From Shigella phage Moonfish: 64,000 bases of DNA. Below the pieces are notes generated by a model. The model saw nothing but the letters and a program-made list of their open reading frames with translations. It searched no databases and had not been told where the DNA came from. The stretch is taken from sequence record PQ613263; one strand, written 5' to 3'. Of this stretch, positions 21,495-51,417 are shown piece by piece (the first letter of the stretch is position 1; every line of letters starts with the position of its first letter). The translations under genes were made by a program, and so were the position numbers.

Positions 21495-21654
21495 TAGTAG
21501 CTTTTAATAGATAGCTGTATTTGAGCATTATAGTCTGCTCATACTCACACTCTTCTGTCGAAGAATATGTTTACAATACCTAGAGTGCCGGACTGTCTTA
21601 CCGGCATTGTCTTTAGAGTGCTAAGCAATCAGGACTATGTTCTCTATTAATGGG

Positions 21655-21728
21655 TGCCCACTACTGGATTTGAACCAGTGACTTTCCGATTATTAGTCGG
21701 TTGCTTTCCCCGTCTAAGCTAAGCGGGC
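21655..21728 (-). tRNA. tRNA gene (manual fold); anticodon loop CUAAUAA, anticodon AAU if numbering is canonical (Ile-type; A34 is unusual)
   Basis: Folded by hand on minus strand: acceptor GCCCGCT/AGTGGGC (one G.U), D-stem GCTT/AAGC with GG in D-loop, anticodon stem CCGA/UCGG, perfect T-arm ACTGG-TTCAAAT-CCAGT, discriminator A. Confidence 0.6.
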
Positions 21729-21929
21729 ATTGATAGGTGAGTCCTGCCAGGCTTTAACTGGCTCCTTCTTCGCAATCCTTACATACCCCTACATAATTAT
21801 TGCGTTAAGCTTTTTTGTTTAAGTTTAAGTGAAGGCGTTCTTGCTGACTCATAATTAGGTGAGGCGTTTGACGAATGACTAGTTCGTTACTACCTCGTTG
21901 TTTGCCATAAGTACCTGGCGACTTCAGGT

Positions 21930-42903: not shown

Positions 42904-43410
42904 TTATTTACTGCTTCTCGCAGCTACTGGTTTGTTTTCCTGGTTATTGTACTTGCCTGTGTATGTGGCAGGTTCTTGAACCAGATGAAATAATACTTGA
43001 GCTATCCCGGAACCAGCCGGGATATGTAATTTCTTACGTCCGTGATAGACCAGTTCAAGGGTAAGATACCCTTTCCATCCTGGTTCAATCACGGTATTGA
43101 ACACTGATAATGCACGTCTTGCCCATGTAGACTTATCGTGAACGATTGCTACACAGGATGGGGACATGTTGAACTTCTCAATGGCTGAAGCCAATGCGAA
43201 CTTACCGAGATGGTGTGATACCTGTTTTCCATCAATGATTTTCACCATTGGAATCAACCCAAATAAGCGATAGAAGGTAATATCTTGTTTGATACGAATA
43301 TCATAACCAGCTTCACCCAACCCATAGCTTACACCATGCTCGGATACCTTACGGTCTGGGACATCCAGTAATTGAGAGGAACGATATAGGGAATTACCGT
43401 TAACAACCAT
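42904..43410 (-). CDS. dCTP deaminase / dUTPase-superfamily enzyme
   Basis: 168 aa; IEPGWKGYLTLELVYHG...IPAGSGIAQVLF matches the Dcd/dUTPase beta-jellyroll signature. Confidence 0.6.
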   Translation of the reverse strand: MVVNGNSLYRSSQLLDVPDRKVSEHGVSYGLGEAGYDIRIKQDITFYRLFGLIPMVKIIDGKQVSHHLGKFALASAIEKFNMSPSCVAIVHDKSTWARRALSVFNTVIEPGWKGYLTLELVYHGRKKLHIPAGSGIAQVLFHLVQEPATYTGKYNNQENKPVAARSSK

Positions 43411-44585
43411 TATTTCATTCCTTTAGGGATATGAACTACCTCCCCAAAAGGTACGGTAGCACTAGGATTATTCAGAACACACCATATGATAGGGATATCA
43501 AATGGTAATTCCTCCATTGGATGAACATACATATCGGAGAATATGATTGCAGCGGTTGGCTTATTCTTAATAATCCAATCCCGTACTGGCACAAGACTTG
43601 TACCACCACGGCCCGTAATCTTAATCTCTTCAAAAGTATCTTCTTCAGTGATGTCTATTTCTTCTTGGATAATATCGTCGAAGGTAATTAAGGACATCTT
43701 CTTAGGATTGAACTGGCTCTTAACGTAGGCAACCTCAGAGTTAAAACGCAGAGAGTCAGCACTACTAATAGAACCAGATACATCCTCAAAGTAAGCTAAG
43801 TGTCGTAAGCGTCCTTCATCATCTTCCAGGGATGGTAGATAGATGTCAGTGAAACGACGGTTAGGTCTGGCCCACGTATAACGTGAGTCATCAATGTCAG
43901 TGAAGAAATCCATCAAGACTTCCTGCCATGGAACTACTGGCTTAAGGAATTGGGTAATAACCTCTTCCATATGACCAGCACCCTTACCAGGCATTGTTCC
44001 ACCAGCCATCTTCTGGCTTTGCATCGCACGTACTACGTTGTTGACAACAGCACCCTGGGACTGCCCCGGAGTGGGAGCTTTCATGTCGCCAGCAAGACCT
44101 GCTCCAGCACCCCCTGACGGCTGCTGCCTTTTCTGAGGGTTCTTCATCAGGTCATCGTAGATGTCTTCTTCAACCCATCCTTTGTATTGAGGGTCTTTGC
44201 AAATACCTTCGTCGATACCAGTGAACTTGTAACCATCTTCCTCTAACTGAAGATTAATGAAGTGGTCACATGCCTGGTTCCAGACTTCTGGGTCACGGCT
44301 TCCACATCGGATGCCATGCAGATATGCCACATGCCAGAGTTCGTGCATTAATACGGTTTCTCTGGCATCTGGACACATCCAGACAAAGAAATCGGGATTG
44401 AAATGGAGTTCTATCCCATCAGTACATGCAGTGGGACAATCCTCACGTCTCCATGAGAATTTAAGGCTACACAGCAATGAACCAAAAAACGCTGCGCTGC
44501 GTCCAAGAAATGCGTTGGCTTGTATTCTATCGTACTCCCTCATTAACTGTTCATCAGTGAGGGTATGTGAAGGTATGTTATTCAT
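43410..44585 (-). CDS. VWA-domain protein with N-terminal HExxH metallopeptidase-like domain (MoxR partner)
   Basis: 391 aa; HELWH zinc-binding-like motif; MIDAS-like D-x-S-G-S (EDVSGSIS). Confidence 0.55.
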   Translation of the reverse strand: MNNIPSHTLTDEQLMREYDRIQANAFLGRSAAFFGSLLCSLKFSWRREDCPTACTDGIELHFNPDFFVWMCPDARETVLMHELWHVAYLHGIRCGSRDPEVWNQACDHFINLQLEEDGYKFTGIDEGICKDPQYKGWVEEDIYDDLMKNPQKRQQPSGGAGAGLAGDMKAPTPGQSQGAVVNNVVRAMQSQKMAGGTMPGKGAGHMEEVITQFLKPVVPWQEVLMDFFTDIDDSRYTWARPNRRFTDIYLPSLEDDEGRLRHLAYFEDVSGSISSADSLRFNSEVAYVKSQFNPKKMSLITFDDIIQEEIDITEEDTFEEIKITGRGGTSLVPVRDWIIKNKPTAAIIFSDMYVHPMEELPFDIPIIWCVLNNPSATVPFGEVVHIPKGMK

Positions 44586-44679: not shown

Positions 44680-45033
44680 TTACCAGATGGAATCTCGTTT
44701 ATGCCAGTACACCCCAGTTACTCCACTGGAATTAGTTACACGTTTCTTTTGGTTTCTACTGTTAGTTTTGCTGTCCACCAACCTAAAGTTACTTAATAGA
44801 TTGTTAACCCTATTATGGTCTATGTGGTCAACCTGCATTCCCTTTGGTATAGGTCCATTGTGCATTTCCCATATGACACGATGCACTTTGTAGCTTTTGC
44901 ACTTATAGTTAAAACACAGATACCCATCACCATTTAAAGAGCCAACCCTGCCCCCAGCAATGGCCCTTGAGGACAATGTAACTTTCCAGAATAGCTCACC
45001 ATTTTCATAAACGAGTATGTCATTCCAGTTCAT
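44680..45033 (-). CDS. free-standing HNH endonuclease (HNH_3-like) with truncated AP2-like tail
   Basis: 117 aa; GYLCF...HRVIWEMHNGPIPKGMQVDHIDHNRVNNLLSNFRLV; C-terminal GVTGVYWHKR AP2-like start then stop. Confidence 0.7.
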   Translation of the reverse strand: MNWNDILVYENGELFWKVTLSSRAIAGGRVGSLNGDGYLCFNYKCKSYKVHRVIWEMHNGPIPKGMQVDHIDHNRVNNLLSNFRLVDSKTNSRNQKKRVTNSSGVTGVYWHKRDSIW

Positions 45034-45036
45034 AGA

Positions 45037-46089
45037 TTATCCGTGAATGTAACGAGAGATATTGGCAGCAGCCTTACGCCATTCAGGGGTAGCCTGAATT
45101 TCTGGTAATGCTCTACCTACTGTACGGAAGTACAGAATCTTATGAGTGAACGTTTTAAAGCGTTCAATGTACTGAAGAACATCAGCGAAGTTTTCTTCAG
45201 TAGTTTTGTTAGCCAGATGGTTAACGGTAGCCCAACACAGGTTGTTATCTTCCGGTAGTGCACAGCCCATAGGGTCTTTGACTACTTTCTCAATCGTAAT
45301 CATACGATTGTATACCTGAGTGAACTGAACAAATTCTGTAGCCTTACCAGCAGTAACGTGGCCTGCATAATAGATAGAATCTTCATCAGGCAGAGCACCT
45401 TCTGGTCGGTTCTTGAGGTCTTTATTAACAAAGTCCCAGGTACGAGGGCAACAGAATGTTTTGTTCTTGTGGGCAGGATCGAAGTCATGCAGATAACCAG
45501 GGTTAGCATGTAAGAATGCAACCAGACGCTCGTCCCATTCCTGTGGAATCATTACGTCTTCAACAAAGATGTCGAAGTTAAGTTCCATTTCGAAGTGGAC
45601 AACTCGAGACTGCATTGCAGTACCTAGTGGGTTAACAATGGCACGGTCAGTAGCTTTGTTACCAGCACAGACAATCATCACATTAGGGTGAAGTTTTTTC
45701 TGACCAGTCATGCGGTCAAGAATTAGTTTGTATGCAGCAGCTACTACTTCTTTCTTAGCTGAGTTGAACTCATCAAGGAACAGGAGCCATCCATTGTAAC
45801 CTTCAGGGATTTCATCCCCTTCAATTGGGAACAAGTCAGCGAATGGAATAAACTCTGCACGGTCACCATTACGGAATGGTAGACCTGATAGGTCTTCTGG
45901 GGCAGAAGTAGACAGACGATGGTCAATCAGCTTCATACCAAATTCATCTGCAACAGAACGAATAATTGCAGATTTACCCATGCCTGGTGATGAAGTCAGG
46001 AACGGTACGTTACCTGCTTGTAAGGCACGGATAATAAAGTTACGGGCTTGACGTGTGTTACATACAGTCAAGGAGTCAATGCTTGCCAT
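45037..46089 (-). CDS. MoxR-like AAA+ ATPase
   Basis: 350 aa; Walker A SPGMGKS, Walker B LLFLDEFN. Confidence 0.7.
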   Translation of the reverse strand: MASIDSLTVCNTRQARNFIIRALQAGNVPFLTSSPGMGKSAIIRSVADEFGMKLIDHRLSTSAPEDLSGLPFRNGDRAEFIPFADLFPIEGDEIPEGYNGWLLFLDEFNSAKKEVVAAAYKLILDRMTGQKKLHPNVMIVCAGNKATDRAIVNPLGTAMQSRVVHFEMELNFDIFVEDVMIPQEWDERLVAFLHANPGYLHDFDPAHKNKTFCCPRTWDFVNKDLKNRPEGALPDEDSIYYAGHVTAGKATEFVQFTQVYNRMITIEKVVKDPMGCALPEDNNLCWATVNHLANKTTEENFADVLQYIERFKTFTHKILYFRTVGRALPEIQATPEWRKAAANISRYIHG

Positions 46090-47587: not shown

Positions 47588-47804
47588 AGTTGTTGATGTG
47601 GTAAATCCAGTAAGCTATCCAACCGGCTAATACAAAGCATCCGGCAGAGTACGCCCCATAGTAGCAATAGGCAAACTTGGATTTATGAGCGTTAACCATA
47701 GTGAGTATTACAATAGCAGATAAAACTATCAGTACGGTTTTAGTAATAACATCATAGATGTCTGGCATGTTGACTACCTCCAAGCAAAAAATAAAAGGCC
47801 TCAC
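47586..47804 (-). CDS. small membrane protein
   Basis: 72 aa with two hydrophobic segments. Confidence 0.45.
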   Translation of the reverse strand: MRPFIFCLEVVNMPDIYDVITKTVLIVLSAIVILTMVNAHKSKFAYCYYGAYSAGCFVLAGWIAYWIYHINN

Positions 47805-47822
47805 ACCCGAAGGTATGAGGCC
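47797..47822 (-). terminator. intrinsic terminator after RNAP II 3' exon
   Basis: GGCCTCA...TGAGGCC hairpin with TTTTATTTTTT on the minus strand. Confidence 0.5.
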
Positions 47823-47828
47823 AGTTTA

Positions 47829-47861
47829 TTAACTTAATGCATAATCCGTTTCAAGAATGTC
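47829..47861 (-). CDS. RNAP II large subunit, 3' mini-exon encoding the C-terminal foot (D)ILETDYALS
   Basis: Closely resembles the T7 RNAP C-terminus RDILESDFAFA; exact 3' junction inferred. Confidence 0.55.
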   Translation of the reverse strand, partial: DILETDYALS

Positions 47862-48988
47862 CTGCCAGAGGCTGTCATCCAGCTTACCCGCAGAGAACTC
47901 TTGTCCCAGTACCTGAGATAGGATGAAGCCCAGCAAGTCACTCTTAGCAATGTCAGATAGAATCTGATTGTACTGACGACGTAGGTCATTACCATAGTTA
48001 GGATGACAACGAAAACCATTAGTTAAACGAGTCGTTAGCTCGCCCTTACCTTCCATGATTAACATGAAAGCCATATGTAGCATCTGCTTGTTTACGAGCA
48101 AGCATTGCCTCCTCAAGTGTGTCGTACGTACCCAGACCGATCTGTTTGCGATTGACTGTGATGTGTGCCTGAAATCTACCAGAAGGCAGTATTCTCACAC
48201 CGTTCACTTTGCTTGAAGTATTACTAGATAAACTCATATTCATCTGGTTCTGTCTGCTGGTTACATTTCTCAAATTAGACCAACGATTGTCGTTTCTAGT
48301 ATGATTGATGTGGTCCACCTGGTTAGGTGTTTCCCCAGTTTCCATTATCCAGATTATTCGATGTAGTAAGTACTCTTTGCGGCCCAGGCTAACGGATAGA
48401 TACCCTTCTTTGTGAGGATACCCCACAATTGTTCCGGCTAACCCACTGGCAGAGTCATAACGATGAGTCACTAGCCCACTATCCCTGTCATACCTTAAAA
48501 CCTTCTGCAAAGATTCTTGGGTAATATTACCCAAGTTTATTATTAGGTTTTTACAGGTAGAGCATAGATGACCTATTGGACTCTTTCTAGCATCATAGAA
48601 GTTACAAACAAACTCATTAGAGCATTGCTTGCAACTACAGATAGCTGTGTACTTACCAGTTTTACGTAATATTTGAGAGTTATCTAACATATGGATTCCT
48701 TAGTAATTTTGCATACAATTTCAGATTGTATCCTAACCAAGGAAGTAAGTCTCCAATTTTCACTGGAGTATCGGACTATATCATCACCCACTAATCAGTG
48801 GGGCAAGGCGCTTGGGTGGTCACTTGACTCACCTACTCTACTCACATACGAAATGCTTTCGATAGTCTCTGAACCTTCCCTCATAGAGGGCTTGGCTGCT
48901 GATTGGCATATCCATAGGACTTAGCTTTCCAGCAATTCACCTTGTTTTCGACACGGATTACTCCGTGAAGGATCATTTATGTTTAATC
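47862..48988 (-). mobile_element. probable group I intron (~1.1 kb) in RNAP II large-subunit gene, carrying an HNH-AP2 endonuclease ORF
   Basis: Upstream ORF stops right after ...VLTVHD, 9-10 codons short of a T7-like C-terminus that is encoded 1.1 kb downstream in frame-compatible position; splice after caU with intron ending caG satisfies U/G group I rules. Confidence 0.55.
48046..48690 (-). CDS. HNH endonuclease with AP2 DNA-binding domain (intron-encoded)
   Basis: 214 aa; own AAGGAA RBS; HNH_3-like GYLSVSL...HRIIWIMETGETPNQVDHINHTRNDNRWSNLR; C-terminal AP2-like GVRILPSGRFQAHI...GTYDTLEEA. Confidence 0.8.
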   Translation of the reverse strand: MLDNSQILRKTGKYTAICSCKQCSNEFVCNFYDARKSPIGHLCSTCKNLIINLGNITQESLQKVLRYDRDSGLVTHRYDSASGLAGTIVGYPHKEGYLSVSLGRKEYLLHRIIWIMETGETPNQVDHINHTRNDNRWSNLRNVTSRQNQMNMSLSSNTSSKVNGVRILPSGRFQAHITVNRKQIGLGTYDTLEEAMLARKQADATYGFHVNHGR

Positions 48989-50014
48989 ATGTACAGTCAA
49001 TACAGGGAATGGCTTCTTAGGTAAAGTGTCCAGCATGTCTGCTACTACCTGACGGTCAACCATAGCAATAGTGCCTGGGTCGAGATAGTCGATAATAGAC
49101 ATAGATAAGAATCCAGACTTCTCGTAGTGTTCCCACAAGGTCTGTACCATTTCCATGTTACCTTCAATCTCCCCATACTCTGCTGGGCCTGTGTCGCAGA
49201 GTTCACGAACAGCAGCAACCAGGTTAGCATCGAAGTTACAACGACGCAGCATCTCGCGTACCACCATCCCATCAATAGAGTGGGTGATGTTAGCAGAGAG
49301 CATACGAGTCTTCTCTTCAGTACCCTGAACCATGCGGGTAATGTCGAATGGTTTACCTAAGAAGTTAACAGTCTGTACTTCTGGAACCATGACCTTAATG
49401 ACGGCATGGAAGTTGTCAGACAATACCCATACGTAACGGTTAGCATCCGGGTTACCACATTGCAGTAAGAACTTGTTCAATGCCCAAGGCCCACTAGCAA
49501 CAGTTTCCATTACATTCTCAAAAGTCTTGAGACGGATACCCTCACCGAATACTTCTTTAGGCTTAGCTTCTGAACCGTAGAATGCAGTCATAACTGCCTG
49601 CTTAGTGTCACTACGCTTAATACGAGATGCTTCACCAAGGATGTCCAACATCTTGTGATAGATAACTGTATAAGCATCACGACGTAATGGCTTACCGTTT
49701 TCACCCATGTAGTTAACTACGTTACACAGTTCAGCAGCAGAACGGTCACCAGTCAGGCAAGCCAGTAACTGCAAGCCTGATGATGTAGCATCCAGAGCTA
49801 CGGCATAGCCAATAGGCTTACCGGCTTTCATATCTTTCCATGCGTTTACACCTGCATAGAACAATGCGGATTCTTCAGCTTCATCTACCAGATTAAGCAG
49901 GTTAGCTTCGTTTTCATCGAACCAGCTAATACGTTCATCCCATGTTTTCTTATCCAGACCCATGTTATTCGCAATATCAATCTTTAAATATTCTTTCGCT
50001 GTGAAAAGCTGCAT
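48989..50014 (-). CDS. phage RNAP II large subunit (N4 gp16-like, T7-like catalytic half), 5' exon
   Basis: LDATSSGLQLLA (T7 motif A FDGSCSGIQHFSA), KQAVMTAFYGS (motif B), ITHSIDG (T7 H784 region), RELCDTG (motif C). Confidence 0.8.
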
Positions 50015-50015
50015 C

Positions 50016-50597
50016 TTAAGCTCCTAGTTTCCACGTATAGCCATATGCTTGTGCATATGTACCAATAATTGATTGTTTAATGTTTGATGGTATTCCATTT
50101 ACACTGCGTGCTGCTGCACTCAGTGAATGGAATGTCTGGATGTAAATACCATCCAGTGTGTATTGCTCTACAGGGATAGCAGATTTGGTATTAATACCGT
50201 TGATTGCATCAGAGTAATACCTTCTTACATTGGCGTTTACCGTAACAACACGAATGTTATCCAGTGAGTAACCTTTATAGTCATCCAGCCTGTCAAGGCT
50301 TGGCTTCAGGTTGGTTGGGTAATCCTCTATTACCCATTTATCATACAGAGTGTGAAACTCTTTCTTTGATAACACCCATTGTTCTAGTTCCTCTTTAGTA
50401 AAAGTAACAGGATTAAACCCTTTCTTCTTGGTTCTGCTTACGCAACCGGAGTACATTTGATTAATGACTCCTTGTTTGGAATGGATAAAACGTTTCACAC
50501 AGTCTTTACAGTCTGCTCTTACACCCTGTTTACCTGTGGACTGTTTATTGAACATGTCCAGAGGCAAGTTCTGCTTACATACTGAACATGTCTTCAT
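50016..50597 (-). CDS. homing-endonuclease-like protein (Cys4 zinc ribbon + C-terminal NUMOD1-like DNA-binding motif), free-standing between RNAP II subunit genes
   Basis: 193 aa; CSVCK...CKDC; C-terminal FHSLSAAARSVNGIPSNIKQSI...GYTWK resembles DNA-binding tails of GIY-YIG/HNH homing endonucleases; no catalytic motif identified. Confidence 0.45.
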   Translation of the reverse strand: MKTCSVCKQNLPLDMFNKQSTGKQGVRADCKDCVKRFIHSKQGVINQMYSGCVSRTKKKGFNPVTFTKEELEQWVLSKKEFHTLYDKWVIEDYPTNLKPSLDRLDDYKGYSLDNIRVVTVNANVRRYYSDAINGINTKSAIPVEQYTLDGIYIQTFHSLSAAARSVNGIPSNIKQSIIGTYAQAYGYTWKLGA

Positions 50598-50598
50598 A

Positions 50599-51417
50599 TT
50601 AATCCTCGTTTACTAACTCTTTATCTGCGAACTCTATAACTGCCTTATTGTAAGAGGTTCCCGCATAGTTAATATGGTATCCACATGCATATGTTCTTCC
50701 CCTCTTATCAAATTTATGTGCTAGTGAGAAGTTATTACCTTCTTTGGTCACTAACTCCATTACTTCCTTAGCTGTACGGCTGTACTTCTCAAAGGCTTTA
50801 ACTCGTTTCTCATAGTCCTGACGGGTTTCACCCTCTTTGGGTTTATCCATGTTAGGACGAGAGTCTTTTACATAGTTGGCAACGTCCCAGTTAATACAGA
50901 GTCGTTGGTTGTTCATACGGTTAATGTGGTCAAGGCAGACGTCCATCTCATGATGGTTCTTCTTGAGGATGATTGAGCCTTTAGATTCATAGTAGCCAGT
51001 GTCCCGATTAGTCAGGACTGGCTTAGGCTTACTGACGATAGGTAATGGATACTGGAATGCCTCCAGTTCCATCTGAACATCTTCACTAATCTCATAAATA
51101 ACACCGAACTTGTCGATGGTAGGGTCATAGTTGAAGCAGTCATTCTCTGCCATCTTATACAGACAGTCAGCGATATACTGAGCGTCATCTGAGTGACTCA
51201 TGAGAGAGCCAATCATAGTCTGAATGTCAGCACGTTTATGTAGGGCAATCTGCACCATTGCATCAATGAGCAGCTTATAATCAATTTCTAAATAGGCGGC
51301 GAATGCCTTAAAGTCAATTTCTTTGGAGTCCTCAAATTCCTTCCTCATGCGAGGGAGTAATTGGTTTTTGTTGAAAAGGATTTCAAGTTGCTTCTGATGT
51401 TCAATAGATGAGTACAT
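50599..51417 (-). CDS. phage RNAP II small subunit (N4 gp15-like, T7-like N-terminal half)
   Basis: 272 aa; KFDKRGRTYA matches the T7 RNAP DWRGRVYA motif; RBS AGGAG; directly upstream of the large subunit. Confidence 0.7.
   Translation of the reverse strand: MYSSIEHQKQLEILFNKNQLLPRMRKEFEDSKEIDFKAFAAYLEIDYKLLIDAMVQIALHKRADIQTMIGSLMSHSDDAQYIADCLYKMAENDCFNYDPTIDKFGVIYEISEDVQMELEAFQYPLPIVSKPKPVLTNRDTGYYESKGSIILKKNHHEMDVCLDHINRMNNQRLCINWDVANYVKDSRPNMDKPKEGETRQDYEKRVKAFEKYSRTAKEVMELVTKEGNNFSLAHKFDKRGRTYACGYHINYAGTSYNKAVIEFADKELVNED

Follow-up and report, generated by a model that had tools for sequence, protein, structure and literature searches.

A probable PacI-type homing endonuclease gene between the RNA polymerase II subunit genes of a G7C-like Shigella phage

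Escherichia phage vB_EcoP_G7C has five HNH homing endonuclease genes, among them gp15.1 (PMC3670811), which is annotated as a 'putative HNH homing endonuclease' (YP_004782142.1). The location of this HNH endonuclease between RNAP1 and RNAP2 has been pointed out previously, and it was proposed that insertion of a homing endonuclease split an ancestral T7-type polymerase (PMC5418858). The gene described here is an orthologue of gp15.1. The two products are both 193 aa long and 86% identical, thus differing at 14% of residues, and their genes occupy the same position with the same 1-nt gaps on either side. The G7C gp16 gene contains no group I intron, whereas its counterpart here does.

Two structurally characterized nucleases are also relevant to this locus. 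PacI (PDB 3LDY/3M7K; group 20 of PMC5714182) is a bacterial restriction enzyme that acts as a homodimer on an 8-bp palindrome. Its metal ion is held by an aspartate and an asparagine, and a tyrosine stands in place of the general-base histidine that is otherwise expected (PMC4081073, PMC5714182, PMC3384342). The asparagine N113 is a metal ligand (PMC4081073), and the enzyme is an active nuclease with tyrosine instead of histidine (PMC5714182, PMC4081073). I-HmuI (PDB 1U3E), from Bacillus phage SPO1, is an intron-encoded HNH nicking homing endonuclease that carries a canonical D-H general base and has no Cys4 ribbon.

A third system resembles this locus in its gene arrangement. T4 MobE, whose catalytic domain is a canonical HNH domain and whose target is different, is the product of a free-standing HNH homing endonuclease gene between nrdA and nrdB. 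Like the gene described below, mobE is therefore a free-standing gene placed between two subunit genes of one enzyme.

The DNA examined here, called the window below, is the whole stretch of 64,000 nt from Shigella phage Moonfish (record PQ613263). It represents an N4-like coliphage of the genus Gamaleyavirus (G7C-like phages) in the family Schitoviridae. The region from 47.8 to 51.9 kb is 88-92% identical to the corresponding DNA of G7C, Bp4, PGN829.1 and relatives, and every gene within it lies on the minus strand. An earlier note on this DNA had reported an ORF of 193 aa wedged between the small and large subunit genes of RNAP II, with gaps of 1-2 nt. This description stands, as the neighbors match phrog_2166 and phrog_2051, and the gaps are exactly 1 nt on both sides (TAA-T-ATG on the gp15 side and TAA-G-ATG on the gp16 side). 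The location was given correctly but without the strand, which is minus. Likewise, the downstream neighbor was properly identified as the large subunit gene, because the ORF at 48983..50014 (minus strand) matches phrog_2051 (E 5e-145) and Pfam RNA_pol and hence is a gp16 homologue. However, a group I intron interrupts gp16, and the ORF corresponds to exon 1 rather than to the whole gene. The homing endonuclease gene (HEG) begins with an ATG codon and has an intact reading frame (Table 1).

Table 1. Features of the HEG cassette and the flanking RNAP II genes in the window
Feature	Position	Strand	Support
RNAP II small subunit gene, N4 gp15 homologue, 272 aa	50599..51417	-	phrog_2166 'N4-like RNA polymerase', E 8e-115
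Shine-Dalgarno GAGGA for the HEG, from the last two gp15 codons (GAG GAT)	50603..50607	-	
Free-standing HEG, 193 aa, G7C gp15.1 orthologue	50016..50597	-	phrog_1035, E 3.2e-28
N-terminal Cys4 zinc ribbon (C4, C7, C30, C33)	50499..50588	-	invariant in family alignment
ββα-metal catalytic core, aa 99-133, PSxD102-R103-x6-Y110-x3-N114-x8-N123, no His	50199..50303	-	
C-terminal NUMOD1-type DNA-binding domain, aa 140-193	50019..50180	-	
Shine-Dalgarno AGGAG for gp16, from the last HEG codons	50021..50025	-	
HEG-linked haplotype in gp16 nt 1-54; candidate co-conversion tract or immune target site	49961..50014	-	
gp16 (RNAP II large subunit) exon 1, 1030 nt	48985..50014	-	phrog_2051 positions 1-339 of 401
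Group I intron, 968 nt, in gp16 at polymerase motif C (between VHD and CF)	48017..48984	-	Rfam RF00028
Intron-encoded HNH_3 + AP2 homing endonuclease, 214 aa	48046..48690	-	phrog_99, E 2e-56
gp16 exon 2, 188 nt including stop codon	47829..48016	-	phrog_2051 positions 340-401
Terminator-like hairpin and T-run 3' of gp16	47797..47822	-	

The HEG product matches phrog_1035 over its full length (E 3e-28), and the nearest protein among 5.8 billion is 91% identical to it. Pfam models for HNH, Endonuclease_7 and GIY-YIG domains yielded no match at E<=1, an NCBIfam search returned nothing relevant, and phmmer with the single sequence retrieved nothing meaningful from the PDB. A search of the PDB with the family profile did recover Hpy99I, I-HmuI and PacI. 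Because the E-values were weak, the link to PacI was confirmed by hhalign and by two fold searches. The hhalign comparison aligned the family profile with PacI residues 3-113 (probability 90%, E 1.6e-6), and this alignment extends from the zinc ribbon to VDRSDSFEGYSPQN. An AlphaFold (AF2) model of the protein built on the family alignment (pLDDT 93.9) had I-HmuI and PacI as its top structural matches. Foldseek gave E 8.6e-4 and probability 1.00 for I-HmuI, and E 1.0e-3 and probability 1.00 for PacI, the latter over 136 columns of a 142-residue chain.

The homology with PacI involves the whole nuclease module, from the CxxC...CxxC ribbon to the ββα-metal core. The four ribbon cysteines are invariant in 25 homologues, and the ribbon aligns with the first zinc ribbon of PacI as well as with that of Hpy99I. 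In the model, strands 99-103 and 115-119 and helix 120-133 make up the ββα element. Residues D102, R103, Y110, N114 and N123 are likewise invariant in the 25 homologues, which have no conserved histidine. They correspond, with identical spacing, to D92, R93, Y100, N104 and N113 of PacI. The protein therefore has the ββα-metal fold of the His-Me finger nucleases and the metal-ligand asparagine of the helix (N123), but not their catalytic general-base histidine, whose position at the end of β1 is occupied by Arg103. It shares the motif D-R-x6-Y-x3-N-x8-N with PacI, which also has no catalytic histidine and positions the tyrosine as a base. We conclude that the catalytic core is homologous to PacI and is a His-Me finger with tyrosine in place of histidine.

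There are also clear differences from each of these enzymes. PacI has a second Cys4 zinc site around the ββα motif, whereas the residues at the positions of PacI C63, C66, C109 and C112 are not cysteines in the HEG product, so that the ribbon provides its only Cys4 site. PacI also has no NUMOD tail, whereas the HEG product ends in a NUMOD1 domain of the kind found in I-HmuI and MobE. This domain scores 28.4 bits against the Pfam NUMOD1 model (PF07453; cutoff 22.8) over aa 141-167, and the model matches 20 of the 25 homologues at E<=1. The C-terminal ~50 aa of MobE are about 50% identical to aa 140-189 of the HEG product, and similarity to mobE regions was detected only in these C-terminal 50 aa. 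I-HmuI differs in being intron-encoded rather than free-standing, and the Pfam HNH_3 model has no match in the HEG product.

Several features had been recognized in the earlier note from the letters alone. The Cys4 ribbon is real, as its four cysteines are invariant, the NUMOD1-like tail exceeds the Pfam cutoff, and a canonical HNH or GIY-YIG motif is indeed lacking. The suggestion drawn from these observations, that the nuclease family might be new or degenerate, lacks support because the family is very large and has a PacI-homologous core. In addition to the phrog_1035 match, an exhaustive profile search collected 1,853 clusters at 50% identity (E<=1e-30), and the G7C orthologue has been annotated since 2011. 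The D-R...Y...N...N pattern occurs in 97 of 108 distant full-length representatives, and D-H occurs in none. Because PacI is active with tyrosine for histidine, the seemingly missing motif is a known and catalytically competent variant. By analogy with PacI, we somewhat favor tyrosine-based chemistry for the HEG product.

The distribution of the HEG among related phages is sporadic. It is present in six of 56 close phage records (four phages), the 56 being those with 80-90% identity to the junction. Besides G7C, the gene was found in PGN829.1, ST4 and Bas96, and the copies of G7C, ST4 and PGN829.1 lie at the same position and encode proteins of 86% amino acid identity to that of the window. 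The spacer between gp15 and gp16 varies accordingly in length and content among the phages compared. It is 56 nt long in EC1-UPM and phiG17, where it consists of the hairpin GGCTCTCCATAGTGGGGAGCC and a ribosome-binding site. In Bp4, ZQ2, E20 and IME11 the spacer is ~200-470 nt and carries small unrelated ORFs, and in Mimir124 it is 524 nt and carries a canonical HNH_3 gene. The G7C type found in the window has a 584-nt spacer with the 193-aa ORF, and pSb-1 and HK2 have one of ~670 nt (up to 671 nt) with a 204-aa relative that is only 30% identical. Thus, at least three unrelated or distant occupants have been found at this junction across the phages compared.

The small ORFs of Bp4, IME11, E20 and ZQ2 were considered as decayed remnants of endonuclease genes. 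This idea was rejected because tblastn found no match between them and the three endonuclease genes, and they are therefore viewed as unrelated small modules.

Comparison with relatives, which the earlier note had proposed as a check on whether the subunit genes are normally contiguous, lends good support to its reading of the ORF as a free-standing gene for a homing endonuclease that is flanked by two conserved genes. Only the 56-nt spacer separates the subunit genes in EC1-UPM and phiG17, the ORF is confined to six of the 56 records, and other endonuclease genes have settled at the same junction. A nuclease core joined to a NUMOD1 tail, purifying selection, and a linked haplotype restricted to the adjacent 54 nt point the same way. 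The HEG is under purifying selection, with dN/dS values of 0.06-0.10 compared with 0.03-0.05 for gp15.

The linked haplotype emerged from a comparison of five HEG-containing genomes with 10 other Gamaleyaviruses. Seven differences in gp16 are fixed between these groups (nt 6, 12, 28, 30, 34, 36 and 54), and none is located at nt 55-297. A smaller set aligned with MAFFT revealed no further fixed differences in gp16 out to 690 nt and a single one in gp15. The gp15 differences were taken from the MAFFT-based set rather than from the larger comparison, whose gp15 count is unreliable because pSb-1 and HK2 carry a one-codon indel. The haplotype could stem in part from common ancestry of the five HEG-containing phages rather than from target immunity. 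Collectively, the features of the cassette are those classically seen when a free-standing homing endonuclease gene is bordered by a short co-converted or immunizing tract, and the ORF is a real and intact selfish nuclease gene.

The cassette is closely integrated with the translation signals of its neighbors. The one fixed change in gp15 turns its last Glu codon into GAG and thereby creates the GAGGA ribosome-binding site of the HEG. The GAG codon appears only where an endonuclease gene comes next (G7C type and pSb-1 type), and HEG-less phages have GAA, GAT or AAT instead. At the other end, the cassette stands in place of the 56-nt hairpin-plus-Shine-Dalgarno spacer, and its own last codons provide the ribosome-binding site for gp16. 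No terminator-like sites were found on the coding strand at the gp15-HEG junction or at the HEG-gp16 junction, but a strong one is located past gp16 (47822..47797).

The 56-nt module that precedes gp16 in other phages is itself conserved. It comprises the hairpin and AAGAAGCAAAAGGAACATAAA (EC1-UPM, 1000-1055), and equivalents exist in Bp4, IME11, E20, pSb-1 and HK2. Among the Gamaleyaviruses examined, only the G7C-type cassette of the window and Mimir124 are without it. Because its hairpin is not followed by a T-run, the module is not a typical terminator.

Other functions for the HEG product were weighed against these data. One is a nuclease-dead, domesticated DNA-binding protein that descended from an HNH endonuclease after loss of the catalytic histidine and that might, for example, regulate the RNAP II operon. 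The arginine at the general-base position, the lack of a conserved histidine anywhere in the family, the failure of Pfam HNH models to match, and the tight coupling of the gene to gp15 and gp16 could all be read in this manner. We nevertheless find this explanation unlikely because the replacement residues are exactly those of active PacI, at identical spacing and without variation. Moreover, a regulator on which RNAP II expression depended would not be missing from ~90% of close relatives, nor would it be swapped for unrelated endonuclease genes at the same site. If the nuclease is active, it might instead serve in restriction or exclusion, attacking competing phages or host DNA in the manner of PacI without copying itself into the cut genome. 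Homology with a restriction enzyme is in keeping with such a role, and viral PacI homologues have been suggested to act as viral restrictases (PMC5714182). It is quite improbable here, given that the insertion site is precise, recurrent and located between conserved genes, that the linked flanking haplotype is short, that NUMOD1 tails are typical of homing endonucleases, and that independent endonuclease genes are found at the same junction. In practice, the mechanism overlaps with intronless homing.

Database labels imply yet another function. Both the phrog_1035 family label and the RefSeq entries of PGN829.1 and pSb-1, which name the product 'endonuclease VII', would make the protein an endonuclease VII-type Holliday junction resolvase, and its N-terminal ribbon bears a weak likeness to that of Hpy99I (E 0.023). 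A gene that is missing from most close relatives cannot be an essential resolvase, however, and the Pfam Endonuclease_7 model (PF02945) matches neither the ORF nor any of 25 family members at E<=1. PDB searches recovered no T4 endonuclease VII chain, and the H-x-D-H signature is absent. As judged from these sequence comparisons, the widespread 'endonuclease VII' label of phrog_1035 is not supported, and we consider a resolvase function highly implausible.

Overall, the HEG product is quite likely to be a functional homing endonuclease of the free-standing type, and the gene to spread by intronless homing. The gene would be expressed from the operon transcript gp15-HEG-gp16, with its translation coupled to that of the RNAP II genes. 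Its product has three modules, namely the Cys4 zinc ribbon, the PacI-type ββα-metal core and a NUMOD1 helix-turn-helix tail. The tail and the ribbon may recognize the junction of gp15 and gp16 in its HEG-less form, with a target that likely extends into the beginning of gp16. Within the core, the metal ion would be coordinated by D102 and N123, and Y110 would take the role of the usual histidine.

During a mixed infection with a related HEG-less phage, the allele of that phage would be cut or nicked at or near the junction in a Mg-dependent reaction involving Y110, D102 and N123, and the site is probably among the first ~50 nt of gp16. Recombinational repair from the HEG-containing genome would then copy the cassette, together with the adjacent 5' end of gp16, into the recipient, and the linked substitutions would protect the HEG-containing allele. 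Because the protein has one Cys4 site and a monomer-style NUMOD tail, unlike PacI, its chemistry may differ, for example by nicking. The cost of the cassette to the phage may be low because gp16 receives a ribosome-binding site from the cassette, whose own is made within the last gp15 codons.

Members of phrog_1035 also reside near RNAP II genes in distant Schitoviridae, including pVco-5, XC38, MIF8 and phages represented by metagenome contigs. The member in Vibrio phage pVco-5 lies between RNAP1 and RNAP2, and those in Erwinia phage MIF8 and Acinetobacter phage XC38 lie just downstream from RNAP2. One possible, though tentative, reading is that this clade (>1,800 clusters at 50% identity) is a homing endonuclease lineage with PacI chemistry, likely the source of PacI itself, whose members have repeatedly colonized the T7-like RNAP II genes of N4-like phages. 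The sites of colonization would then be between the subunit genes, inside an insertion at motif B, and just downstream. Such recurrent colonization fits the published idea of a two-subunit polymerase created by insertion.

The motif-B insertion was observed in a Gamaleyavirus metagenome contig (L023, 5016-5813; GCA_008916905.1), where gp16 is interrupted at KQAV/MTAFYGS. It encodes a second phrog_1035 member that has the pattern D-Q...Y...N...N and no NUMOD tail. Such a member likewise interrupts gp16 at a similar position in pVco-5 and XC38. Weak Intron_gpI matches (32 and 17 bits) were obtained for the insertion in the contig, whose ends would permit a U upstream of the 5' splice site and a G as the last intron nucleotide. 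This insertion probably represents a second, divergent group I intron.

As a gene, the HEG adds little to what is known, since it is a further copy of a homing endonuclease gene that has already been annotated and published, and the site is a known hotspot of the G7C-like phages. Its novelty is low both for this reason and because the family is very large. What is usefully added is that the core can be assigned to the PacI type, that the boundaries of the cassette and its linked haplotype have been defined, and that the adjacent intron has been recognized. For thousands of phage proteins, PacI-type His-Me fingers without histidine supply a concrete catalytic hypothesis (Y110, D102 and N123). 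Intronless homing in N4-like phages could conveniently be studied at the gp15/gp16 junction, a natural system with three endonuclease occupants and a 54-nt linked haplotype.

The intron in gp16 was recognized from a match to RF00028 at 48994..48751 on the minus strand (91 bits with a cutoff of 50, E 3e-23). The exon-1 ORF ends in LTVHD followed by a stop codon, and the last 62 positions of the profile are found in a separate ORF at 47829..48116. Splice junctions were mapped by comparison with G7C gp16, and the resulting boundaries (GAUU/AAAC...AAUG/GU) place a U directly ahead of the 5' splice site and a G at the end of the intron. Predicted splicing yields VHD CFRCHPNY in a reading frame of 1218 nt, which encodes 405 aa and is collinear with G7C gp16 and of the same length. 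By this prediction, gp16 is an intron-containing gene. The insertion point is presumably directly after the catalytic Asp of motif C, by analogy with D812 of T7 RNAP.

The intron-encoded endonuclease matches Pfam HNH_3 with 55 bits and AP2 with E 1.3e-4, a match that stays below the cutoff of that model. Its gene lies 3' of the conserved intron core, and the 3' splice site is located 29 nt past its stop codon. Phage ZQ2 carries the same 968-nt intron at 94.2% identity and without gaps, and the region is annotated there as two RNA polymerase CDSs plus an HNH endonuclease rather than as an intron. For annotators, gp16 in the window and in ZQ2 would thus be better described as a gene containing a predicted intron than as a split or truncated polymerase gene. 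An intron also occupies the same gp16 site in Erwinia phage MIF8 and in a 70-kb metagenomic contig (L021), and the latter has the same combination as the window, with an HEG between the subunit genes and an intron at motif C.

A literature search found no paper describing the gp16 intron. An endonuclease insertion has been reported in RNAP2 of Pseudomonas phage ZC08 (PMC5418858), and the ZC08 sequence matches the 5' part of the gp16 intron. Many FelixO1-like phages (Felixounavirus) of Salmonella and E. coli also have, within their DNA polymerase genes, sequences that are 72-80% identical to the intron core (48751-48994) over 120-190 nt. This similarity suggests that related introns are transferred from one phage group to another, unrelated one, and likewise between polymerase genes that are not related to each other.

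Immediately upstream of the intron, nt 781-1020 of gp16 (48995-49234, minus strand) form a hypervariable segment of 240 nt that is 41-76% identical between Gamaleyaviruses, compared with >90% elsewhere. The window and G7C are only 43-66% identical in this segment. Its interpretation as an exon co-conversion tract of the intron was rejected because the intron-less phages G7C and Bp4 are equally divergent there.

A third HNH gene is present farther along the window. This free-standing HNH_3 ORF (44680-45033, minus strand; 117 aa, 67 bits) lies 3 nt downstream from a gene for a 350-aa AAA ATPase (45037-46089) and upstream of a DUF2201 metallopeptidase/VWA gene (43410-44585), and it may be a truncated homing endonuclease gene. 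The sole tRNA gene in the window (21651-21729, minus strand) was identified by ARAGORN as a tRNA-Ile with anticodon AAT, and it scores 63.8 bits with the Rfam tRNA model.
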